A DNA stretch of 64,000 nucleotides. It comes from Clostridia bacterium (GTDB taxonomy: Bacteria; Bacillota; Clostridia; TANB77; CAG-508). The position numbers and the translations under genes are program-made. Below, one piece after another: positions 58,205-58,962 of this stretch. The stretch is from the NCBI GenBank assembly GCA_017528085.1, contig JAFXPH010000002.1:343898-407897 (forward strand), given 5' to 3'. Below the pieces are notes generated by a model. It worked only from the letters and a program-made list of their open reading frames with translations, did no database searches and was not told the DNA's origin. Within the stretch, counting starts at the first letter, position 1. Every line of letters begins with the position of its first letter.

Positions 58205-58240
58205 ACTCCATTTCTTAAATCTCAAGAAATGGAGTTTTTA
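58205..58240 (+). terminator. rho-independent terminator after tRNA-Gly
   Basis: 12-bp stem ACTCCATTTCTT..AAGAAATGGAGT followed by T5. Confidence 0.7.
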
Positions 58241-58256
58241 TTATTTTATGCAGTCA

Positions 58257-58285
58257 TTGAAATCTCGCATCTACCGTGCTATAAT
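58257..58285 (+). promoter_or_regulatory. consensus sigma-A promoter driving the two small ORFs
   Basis: TTGAAA, a 17-nt spacer, then TATAAT (a perfect consensus). An inverted repeat CTTGCTtttAGCAAG lies just downstream. Confidence 0.55.
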
Positions 58286-58369
58286 AAACGCACAATTTAA
58301 TTCCCTTGCTTTTAGCAAGTTTATCATATATATCTGACGCAAATAATTTTAGTGACAGAGGTGACAACT

Positions 58370-58573
58370 ATGAACATTAGTCTACCGTATGAAATCGGCA
58401 CAACACTCAAAACAACTGATTCTGGTGTTGTTCACTATGATAAAGTACATCGCTACATCGTAGGAGACAAAATCCAAGTTGTACTGATGCTGTGCTACGA
58501 CAAAGATCCCAGATTATCTGTTCCGATAGATATCGAAGATCTAAAAAAGAGATGGGAGGTTTTTGAATCCTAG
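58370..58573 (+). CDS. small hypothetical protein (67 aa)
   Basis: RBS GAGGTGA followed by ATG (MNISLPYEIG...). The ORF track used an upstream GTG instead. Confidence 0.4.
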   Translation: MNISLPYEIGTTLKTTDSGVVHYDKVHRYIVGDKIQVVLMLCYDKDPRLSVPIDIEDLKKRWEVFES

Positions 58574-58616
58574 ATTGTCAAAGTTCTCAAATCATACTTG
58601 TTAAGGAGGAGATTTT

Positions 58617-58955
58617 ATGGCAAATGACTTCTACGCTATATCAGATAGGACCTATACCCTACAAGAATCCGATAATCCTAATCAGTTCTACTTTTATCGG
58701 AATGATGGAAAAGTTCTAACTGATATAGACAGAGAACCGATGGACTTGTATCACGCTTATATCATGAACAAGATGATGAATGGTGAAATCACTGATATTG
58801 TCATGAATAACATTTATTCACAAATGTCTACTGACCACACTACGATTCGTCTTACAATTTCTGATATTGGTGAAGATCCTGTTCCTCGAGAAAGTTCAGC
58901 CATCCACGAAAAGCCCAGCTTTTGGAAAAGACTTTTTAAAAAGATATTTGGGTAA
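58617..58955 (+). CDS. small hypothetical protein (112 aa)
   Basis: Strong RBS AAGGAGGAG, no signal peptide and no recognisable motifs. Confidence 0.45.
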   Translation: MANDFYAISDRTYTLQESDNPNQFYFYRNDGKVLTDIDREPMDLYHAYIMNKMMNGEITDIVMNNIYSQMSTDHTTIRLTISDIGEDPVPRESSAIHEKPSFWKRLFKKIFG

Positions 58956-58962
58956 AAACAAA

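Follow-up and report, generated by a model that had tools for sequence, protein, structure and literature searches.

Organization of the tRNA-Gly locus

We examined a cassette of two small open reading frames (ORFs), ORF1 and ORF2, on the 3′ flank of a tRNA-Gly gene in Clostridia bacterium (assembly GCA_017528085.1, contig JAFXPH010000002.1). The whole stretch of DNA that was analyzed, 64,000 nt corresponding to contig positions 343,898 to 407,897, is referred to as the window, and coordinates without a locus label are positions in it. Loci from other contigs are designated by L numbers.

The tRNA-Gly gene (anticodon tcc; 58123-58196, plus strand) was identified by ARAGORN and by the Rfam tRNA model (59.2 bits). 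An intrinsic terminator on the same strand (58205-58235; 12-bp stem followed by a T-run, -14.7 kcal/mol, z-score -6.1) sets its transcription apart from that of the cassette, which begins 43 nt past the end of the tRNA gene and spans about 58240-59000. Translation yields 67 amino acids for ORF1 (58370-58573, plus strand; ATG start, GAGGTG Shine-Dalgarno sequence) and 112 amino acids for ORF2 (58617-58955, plus strand; AAGGAGG Shine-Dalgarno sequence). The two genes, on the same strand and 43 nt apart, have a single promoter and a single terminator. The latter is a hairpin (58962-58998; 17-bp stem, -22.3 kcal/mol, z-score -7.3) with an A-run at one end and a T-run at the opposite end, common to ORF2 on the plus strand and to a convergent NUDIX gene on the minus strand, whose stop lies at 59003.

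The promoter (58257-58285, plus strand) is of the sigma-A type and near-consensus, with TTGAAA (58257-58262), a 17-nt spacer and TATAAT (58280-58285) preceded by the TG of an extended -10 element. It matches 11 of the 12 consensus positions in addition to the TG, and had the top score in a promoter scan of 4 kb, tied with the promoter of tRNA-Gly itself (58081-58109). Promoter-like strings in this AT-rich DNA (29.7% GC) are no commoner than in shuffled sequences (20 matches versus 16 ± 4), so the case for promoter function is its conservation across genomes. About 13 nt past the predicted transcription start lies a 6-bp palindrome, CTTGCTTTTAGCAAG (58305-58319, plus strand), a candidate hairpin in the 5′ untranslated region.

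The cassette has a GC content of 0.354 compared with a window mean of 0.297, which corresponds to the 95th percentile of 700-nt windows. GC content at third codon positions (GC3) is the clearer compositional signal, with 0.37 in both ORF1 and ORF2 versus 0.11-0.17 in rimI, tsaB, tsaE, the NUDIX gene, the flavodoxin gene and other neighbors. According to a Pfam scan, the cassette is flanked by tsaE, tsaB and rimI on one side and by the NUDIX gene on the other. It does not lie within a prophage, as the flanking genes are housekeeping genes and viral collections gave no matches. Its own promoter and terminator together with its deviant composition are the features of a moron-like autonomous cassette. 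A preliminary description of this DNA had already listed the tRNA gene, both terminators (the second as bidirectional), the promoter, the palindrome and the two ORFs, and all were found where it had placed them. Its claims of a TTGAAA-N17-TATAAT promoter after the tRNA-Gly terminator and of a shift in GC content were likewise confirmed.

Both ORFs are genuine coding genes under purifying selection. The ratio of nonsynonymous to synonymous substitution rates (dN/dS) is 0.07-0.34 for ORF2, and in distant pairs of ORF1 the proportion of nonsynonymous differences (pN) is about 0.2, compared with about 0.75 for synonymous differences (pS). In the public record of this metagenome-assembled genome (MAG; Clostridia bacterium, locus tags IKN74_019xx), ORF2 appears as a 71-aa hypothetical protein (MBR3511699.1), with a start placed too far downstream. 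For the exact ORF1 sequence of the window, the inspected 90% cluster contained no NCBI entry, although a 79%-identical homolog (P0093) is NCBI-sourced.

Distribution of ORF1 and ORF2 across genomes

The two genes are not co-conserved. Using tblastn, we found ORF1 in none of the 27 ORF2 loci that were fetched first and that lie outside the clade of the window (L001-L027). Among the loci fetched later, it was present only in members of this clade. Adjacency of ORF1 and ORF2 was restricted to same-species contigs (L035-L041, 99.6-100% nucleotide identity) and to the relatives L034 (97%), L055 (95.4% over 56120-58703), L042 (88.8%) and L044 (84-86%). The pair is thus confined to DNA at least 84% identical to the window.

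Elsewhere, ORF1 homologs are followed by other genes, which encode proteins of 122 aa (L028), repeat proteins of 185-186 aa (L081-L085), and proteins of 113 aa (L086-L088) or 182 aa (L089-L091); in L031, only a very short ORF lies downstream. The ORF2 family profile matched none of the genes 3′ of ORF1 homologs. Conversely, no conserved partner of ORF2 emerged when all flanking ORFs from 29 ORF2 loci were clustered. The sole recurrent neighbors in these 29 loci were an HD_3 gene, directly upstream of ORF2 in three of them, and an RlmD-like gene adjacent to tRNA-Leu. The best reading of these data is that ORF1 and ORF2 are unrelated genes and not a functionally coupled pair.

The ORF2 protein family

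Homologs of ORF2 were found in 90 clusters (clustered at 90% identity, 49-96% identical to ORF2), all from uncultured gut or rumen Clostridia. A profile search of 1.84 billion representative proteins extended the family to 133 clusters at 50% identity, with lengths of 45-212 aa and no fusion to a known domain. Neither ORF1 nor ORF2 matched any entry of Pfam, NCBIfam, PHROGs or PADLOC, and a Pfam scan of 89 members of the ORF2 family gave only scattered chance matches. ORF2 founds an unannotated family without an entry in Pfam, including its domains of unknown function (DUFs). The family is fairly widespread, its small proteins being confined to uncultured gut and rumen Clostridia.

An AlphaFold2 model of ORF2, based on 35 sequences, had a predicted local distance difference test (pLDDT) score of 78 for the whole chain, with values above 90 in the core. 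The modeled chain forms three strands, a long helix, two further strands, a disordered linker (residues 89-105) and a terminal helix (residues 103-111). The prediction is confident for a compact, novel alpha/beta core (residues 1-88), which is followed by a variable linker and an amphipathic helix at the C terminus. An FYRxDG turn is invariant in the alpha/beta domain. Profiles from alignments A1 and A6 found nothing among PDB sequences, BFVD gave no significant match, and structure searches gave no significant match and no RNA-binding family or fold. Recognized toxin families and folds (RelE, MazF, VapC, HicA, Doc, Zeta and others) were not found, nor was the HIT superfamily, as judged by its fold and its HxHxHxx nucleotide-binding motif. 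Weak profile matches of residues 9-34 to giant FG-GAP/PKD proteins were attributed to a local YRNDG beta-turn motif, and a link to FG-GAP proteins by homology was rejected.

Scans of IMG/VR recovered neither the ORF1 nor the ORF2 family. With IMG/VR, PHROGs and BFVD all negative, nothing pointed to anti-defence proteins, whether by phage or mobile-element coding or by likeness to known proteins. Neither ORF contains a signal peptide, a transmembrane segment or a toxin domain, as read from the sequence and from the Pfam and NCBIfam results.

The tail of ORF2, PSFWKRLFKKIFG (codons 58914-58952, plus strand), is a predicted MinD-like membrane-targeting sequence. A basic amphipathic helix with the consensus NFLKRLFHKIFG is kept across the alignments of the family, where the tails have a median hydrophobic moment of 0.70 and, in 81% of members, a net charge of at least +2. 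MinD attaches to the membrane by means of an amphipathic helix at its C terminus (PMC8155659), and the ORF2 family presents a conserved helix of this type after a linker. We predict from this pattern that ORF2 is a peripheral membrane protein. It would be cytoplasmic and reversibly bound to the inner face of the membrane through its C-terminal helix, and its alpha/beta domain would act there.

Internally deleted or truncated copies of ORF2 were observed in three loci, comprising residues 1-74 in L052 (858-1079), 1-37 in L054 (1314-1424) and 1-26 in L056 (3001-3078). The gene is being lost in some lineages, as expected of a dispensable accessory gene.

The ORF1 protein family

ORF1 homologs were found in 9 clusters with a single sequence and in 99 with a profile. 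ORF1 is predicted to be mostly beta-strand, and its AlphaFold2 model was too poor for a fold search (pLDDT 46). No match to the DNA-binding domains of antitoxins, such as HTH, RHH, AbrB/MazE or Phd, was found for ORF1 in Pfam or NCBIfam, the model being as poor as stated. ORF1 would be an independent small soluble protein.

One 109-aa protein, P0340 (L080:861-1190), is a hybrid in which the N-terminal half of a PemK/MazF-type toxin is continued by the C-terminal half of an ORF1 homolog. Its source is one contig of 1.6 kb, and the hybrid is due either to a real deletion that fused neighboring genes or to chimeric assembly.

Proposed assembly of the operon from two units

The -35, TG and -10 elements are conserved upstream of ORF1 homologs (L028, L031, L081 and L086), whatever gene comes after. 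The palindrome also keeps its position and its CTTGC/GCAAG arms at ORF1 homologs (CTTGCAAATATTCAAG in L031, CTTGCAAATATGCAAG in L081 and CTTGCAATTATGCAAG in L086). Similarity of ORF2 to other loci, in turn, extends only from 19-27 nt before the start codon, which includes the Shine-Dalgarno sequence, to 50-70 nt past the stop codon, which includes the terminator. The other ORF2 loci have a TTGAAA-17-TGnTATAAT promoter of their own and a different leader, and their terminators after ORF2 are homologous. We assign the promoter of the window to the ORF1 unit because promoter elements and palindrome go with ORF1 homologs, and because ORF2 similarity starts only at -19 to -27.

The palindrome could be a leader hairpin or an operator. 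Among ORF1 homologs, T-A changes to A-T at one position of the arms, and the loop is 3 or 4 nt long. Such variation fits an RNA leader hairpin somewhat better than an operator of fixed spacing, and does not decide between them.

Together, these borders suggest that an ORF1 unit, comprising promoter, leader hairpin and ORF1, was placed before ORF2 and displaced its usual promoter and leader. ORF2 would then be read as a second cistron, retaining its own Shine-Dalgarno sequence and terminator.

L034 is homologous to the window from about 58239 onward, just 5′ of the -35 element, and has a different left flank. This junction marks a place of DNA exchange and shows nothing more. We considered L034, 97% identical with another left flank, as proof of mobility and dropped it, as L034 belongs to the lineage of L042 and L044. 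The right flank of this lineage is syntenic with the window except for a 36-nt indel, and only the left junction, at about 58239, differs. The indel consists of an extra 36 nt between the ORF2 terminator and the end of the NUDIX gene in L034, L042 and L044 compared with the window. In the same three loci, the tip of the ORF2 terminator hairpin (58976-58984 in the window; 1797-1806 in L034) is inverted, reading TAGCTTAAAAAACTA versus TAGTTTTTTAAGCTA in the window, and the stem is unchanged.

Recurrent location beside tRNA and tmRNA genes

ORF2 was found 160-420 nt downstream, on the same strand, of genes for tRNA-Gly(tcc) (window, L013, L014, L015 and L021), tRNA-Leu(taa) (L001), tRNA-Leu(tag) (L004, L024 and L053), tRNA-Thr(ggt) (L011), tRNA-Arg(acg) (L023) and transfer-messenger RNA (tmRNA; L019). 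The contexts of these homologs are otherwise unrelated, and six kinds of RNA partner are far more than would be expected for a random gene. The ORF1 family is tRNA-adjacent as well, 173 nt past tRNA-Gly in the window and 174 nt past tRNA-Leu(tag) in L086. As far as the available loci indicate, location on the 3′ side of tRNA genes is characteristic of both families. The cassette of the window shares this location with tRNA-integrated elements, for which tRNA and tmRNA genes provide the insertion site at their 3′ ends.

The arrangement varies in detail. In some loci the tRNA gene is farther upstream of ORF2, with genes for a WG-repeat protein (L022), for an ISNCY transposase and an HD_3 protein (L010), or with an 85-aa ORF (L045) in between. 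ORF2 is at the end of multi-tRNA clusters in L013 and L021, two copies of tRNA-Gly surround it in L015, and the tRNA gene is on the opposite strand in L025. About 10 ORF2 loci have no tRNA gene within 1.5-4 kb, and an Rfam scan found no other RNA genes upstream of ORF2 in these loci. In every locus inspected, a terminator followed by an independent consensus promoter intervenes between tRNA and gene, so the position is not explained by co-transcription.

Signs of insertion

Near-identical copies of ORF2 occur in unrelated flanks, with 98.4% identity over 900 nt between L001 and L008 and 94.9% between L001 and L010. The 11-nt 3′ end of tRNA-Leu(taa) in L001, CATCTGCACCA, is found again 231 nt past ORF2, and the homology between L001 and L008 spans exactly the segment from GCACCA to the CATCTGCACCA repeat. 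A tRNA-terminator repeat of 36 nt, identical at 35 of 36 positions, brackets the cassette of an ORF1 homolog in L086. L045 contains, 144 nt past the tRNA gene, a 21-nt copy of the 3′ end of tRNA-Leu, with ORF2 beyond it. In all of the 12 loci tested, ORF2 was GC-richer than its own locus. Genes for type IV coupling proteins were present near L001 and L089.

An operator-like motif, TACTACTGTACT(3 nt)ACTGTACA followed by a -10 box, was observed twice in L001 (4812-4842 and 5475-5507). It flanks ORF2 on both sides, within the 0.9-kb segment that is bounded by the tRNA-end repeats.

Other units and compositional islands near tRNA genes

Some further elements recur in the neighborhood of these genes. 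A small ORF of 59-93 aa with the start MKIIKQEL... lies between tRNA and ORF2 in L045 (524-777) and L010 (1321-1602), and directly upstream of the ORF1 homolog in L081-L085 (L081:3694-3873). It is a third member of the travelling set of small genes.

A trailer, A[TC]GA[CT]G..TCTGTTCGAACT(loop)GAACAGA, starts right past the CCA of at least five tRNAs in different MAGs (Leu-taa, Leu-tag, Thr-ggt, Gly-tcc and Thr-cgt). Sites of the TCTGTTCGAACT trailer are L010:1214-1250, L004:4604-4640, L045:395-430, L011:3709-3745 and L013:489-525, in addition to the IMG/VR loci L057, L063 and L072. We considered the TCTGTTCGAACT...GAACAGA hairpin as a possible mobile-element terminus and rejected this, since tRNAs in contigs that lack ORF2 are followed by it too. 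The hairpin seems to be a lineage-specific feature of tRNA 3′ trailers, and it is absent from the window.

Another conserved unit, about 125 nt long, combines a promoter with an RNA of roughly 70 nt, which ends in a 7-bp stem (GCCAGCG/CGTTGGC) with ACCA and a terminator behind it. It was found at L008:3567-3693, L009:4393-4516, L052:~1150-1272, L054:~1425-1546 and L056:~3108-3229, and not in the window. The unit lies just 3′ of ORF2 in four of these loci; in L008 it lies just 5′, and the ORF2 element starts exactly at its GCACCA end. Its RNA, which was recognized neither by ARAGORN nor by Rfam, looks like a tRNA-like minihelix.

The window contains two other islands of high GC content. A 326-aa lipoprotein-like ORF (59696-60676, plus strand) has a GC content of 0.475 and a GC3 of 0.51, versus a GC3 of 0.11-0.17 in its neighbors. 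A TG-extended promoter (59521-59549) and a terminator (60703-60728) of its own frame this ORF, which is kept in L044 at 83.5% identity and has no match in Pfam, NCBIfam, PHROGs or PADLOC. The ORF lies 0.7 kb away from the cassette and resembles a second, independent insertion of a single foreign gene. The third high-GC stretch (24700-27100, GC content 0.417) contains a 590-aa ORF (25013-26785, minus strand) that, judged by its sequence, looks like an ABC-type ATPase/permease. This island lies directly 3′ of tRNA-Asn (27002-27077, minus strand), and is thus another compositional island on the 3′ flank of a tRNA gene.

Interpretation

The above observations are probably best explained by the accretion of two unrelated accessory cassettes at a tRNA-linked hot spot, with ORF2 being a membrane-tethered protein of a new family. 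Both families would be part of a larger stock of small genes that are GC-richer and individually equipped with promoter and terminator. In the low-GC genomes of uncultured Clostridia from gut and rumen, such genes would accumulate just 3′ of tRNA and tmRNA genes. The cassettes may arrive or be shuffled by recombination at tRNA-linked integration sites. They could be decayed, integrase-less remnants similar to cis-mobilizable elements (CIMEs), since fixed in the lineage of the window. We favor a CIME-like origin because repeats at tRNA ends, unrelated flanks, GC-rich ORF2 and the decay of ORF2 match such remnants (PMC5704250). On this interpretation, a small two-gene operon next to a tRNA gene can arise from the accretion of unrelated cassettes. 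Both families are repeatedly the first genes downstream of different tRNA and tmRNA genes, and are sometimes bounded by tRNA-end or terminator repeats. If an active process lies behind this, it would show how very small cassettes lacking an integrase spread among the reduced, AT-rich genomes of the gut.

Several points weigh against accretion of foreign cassettes and against the membrane tether. Within 5.8 kb in the window, no att-like repeat of the tRNA-Gly 3′ end and no attL/attR pair was found, and there is no integrase or transposase gene within 5.8 kb downstream. Relatives with as little as about 84% nucleotide identity retain the order tsaE, tRNA-Gly, ORF1, ORF2, NUDIX; therefore, mobility at the window locus is historical at best, and the copy in the window, if acquired at all, is an old, fixed acquisition. 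Flanking repeats were seen in only three related loci (L001, L086 and L045). Raised GC3 could reflect the codon bias of highly expressed genes and not foreign origin, and tRNA adjacency could come from vertical descent beside a tRNA cluster with turnover of its members. The loci are not phylogenetically independent, and hence no exact P value is given for the tRNA association. As to the tether, membrane binding by the helix is inferred from its sequence, and the 95th percentile of the hydrophobic moment in shuffled tails is 0.78, so it is the conserved pattern of residues that lends support and not the value of the moment.

Other explanations have to be weighed against accretion. The two genes might be vertically inherited, lineage-specific orphans without any mobile history, their tRNA link and composition being by-products of tRNA-cluster rearrangement and of codon bias. 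We consider this unlikely. It agrees with the synteny of the window locus down to 84% identity, without att repeats or recombinase, with the position of ORF2 at the ends of the tRNA clusters in L013 and L021, and with the absence of both families from viral collections. It is difficult to reconcile with ORF2 copies of 95-98% identity in unrelated flanks, with tRNA-end or terminator repeats that bound cassettes exactly in L001 and L086 or lie beside ORF2 in L045, with an ORF2 that is GC-richer than every host locus tested, and with the proximity of the two other high-GC single-gene islands of the window to tRNA genes. It is quite unlikely, in our estimate, that ORF1, ORF2 and similar genes are the cargo of an unrecognized class of single-gene units of 0.45-0.9 kb, each made up of promoter, gene and terminator, that lack a recombinase of their own and are inserted in trans at the 3′ ends or terminators of tRNA, tmRNA or tRNA-like genes of many identities in gut Clostridia. 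ORF2 would in addition be a new membrane-tethered effector, whose selectable function would explain its spread. Alternatively, ORF2, and perhaps ORF1, might be located near tRNA and tmRNA genes for a functional reason, either coupled expression or an action on tRNA, tmRNA or translation at the membrane, so that the position itself is selected. The same-strand position of ORF2 160-420 nt from six kinds of tRNA or tmRNA, the stability of the arrangement in the clade of the window, and a very strong promoter and Shine-Dalgarno sequence everywhere, suggestive of an abundant protein, would be in line with such a role. We nevertheless regard it as very unlikely, given that co-transcription is not built into any inspected locus, where a terminator and an independent consensus promoter always intervene, that about 10 loci have no tRNA gene nearby and L025 has it on the opposite strand, that other genes, including an insertion sequence, separate tRNA and ORF2 at some loci, that ORF2 is deleted in some lineages, and that no RNA-binding family or fold was matched.

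Least probable of all, and in our view highly improbable, is the coupled module that the preliminary description had suggested, a toxin-antitoxin (TA), toxin-immunity or anti-defence pair with ORF2 as the effector and ORF1 as a small neutralizer or a regulator that acts on the palindrome. The layout is that of a type II TA system in the sizes of the two proteins (67 and 112 aa), the gene order, the 43-nt spacing, the one promoter with a palindrome and the common terminator, and the cassette is compositionally foreign. The chimeric protein P0340 hints that an ORF1 gene once adjoined a TA gene, although its source is one contig of 1.6 kb and the fusion may be an artefact of assembly or of a deletion. 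In L081-L085, a HEPN-domain gene lies about 3 kb upstream of the ORF1 homolog. Against these points, ORF1 was absent from all of the 27 first-fetched ORF2 loci outside the clade, ORF2 is usually monocistronic with its own promoter, and the palindrome goes with ORF1 irrespective of the following gene. Searches connected neither protein with a TA, immunity, defence or phage family or fold (no family match of either in Pfam, NCBIfam, PADLOC or PHROGs and no significant structural match of ORF2), neither family occurs in IMG/VR, and ORF2 lacks a signal peptide and a transmembrane segment. The preliminary description had itself named lack of co-conservation, and lack of a phenotype or of similarity to TA or immunity folds, as findings that would speak against a two-gene module; apart from the phenotype, the co-conservation and homology searches bear this out. 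What stands of its proposal is a foreign small-gene cassette at a tRNA 3′ end, upheld by composition, independent transcription and recurrent tRNA location, and not its functional unity. ORF1-ORF2 is not sustained as a candidate TA or anti-defence module and should not be carried forward as such.

Comparison with known systems

The C-terminal region of ORF2 resembles the tails of MinD and FtsA in that a short basic amphipathic helix follows a flexible linker. The tail of Escherichia coli MinD is GFLKRLFGG, and the ORF2 consensus NFLKRLFHKIFG shares with it the pattern hydrophobic-hydrophobic-basic-basic-hydrophobic-hydrophobic. Unlike in MinD and FtsA, the globular domain of ORF2 is predicted to be a novel alpha/beta domain of 88 residues, neither a ParA/MinD ATPase nor actin-like.

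Like the cassette, type II TA operons comprise two small genes in the same orientation under one promoter, with a palindrome close to the start of transcription. They differ from the cassette in co-conservation of the partners, in toxin or antitoxin families and folds, and in that ORF2 normally occurs alone with its own promoter. Phage morons, which are single-gene insertions with autonomous transcription, share with the cassettes the composition of promoter, one small gene and terminator, the deviant base composition and the placement between unrelated genes, whereas the cassettes lie outside prophages and their families are not represented in IMG/VR, PHROGs or BFVD.

Another parallel is provided by CIMEs, for which integration at tRNA 3′ ends and tandem accretion have been reviewed (PMC5704250). 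Differences from CIMEs are the lack of detectable attL/attR in the window copy, the tiny size of the cassette units (0.45-0.9 kb with one gene each), the nature of the L086 repeat, which is a tRNA terminator and not a tRNA, the occurrence of one ORF2 family at six tRNA or tmRNA targets, and the fact that the cassettes are known without a cognate integrase or parent conjugative element. Like CIMEs (PMC5704250), the cassettes lie at the 3′ ends of tRNA and tmRNA genes, are integrase-less and contain only cargo, and related loci are flanked by direct repeats with the tRNA 3′ end (11 nt in L001). Tandem accretion, too, has its counterparts, in ORF1 and ORF2 in the window, in the 144-nt remnant before ORF2 in L045, and in the insertion sequence and HD-domain gene in L010.

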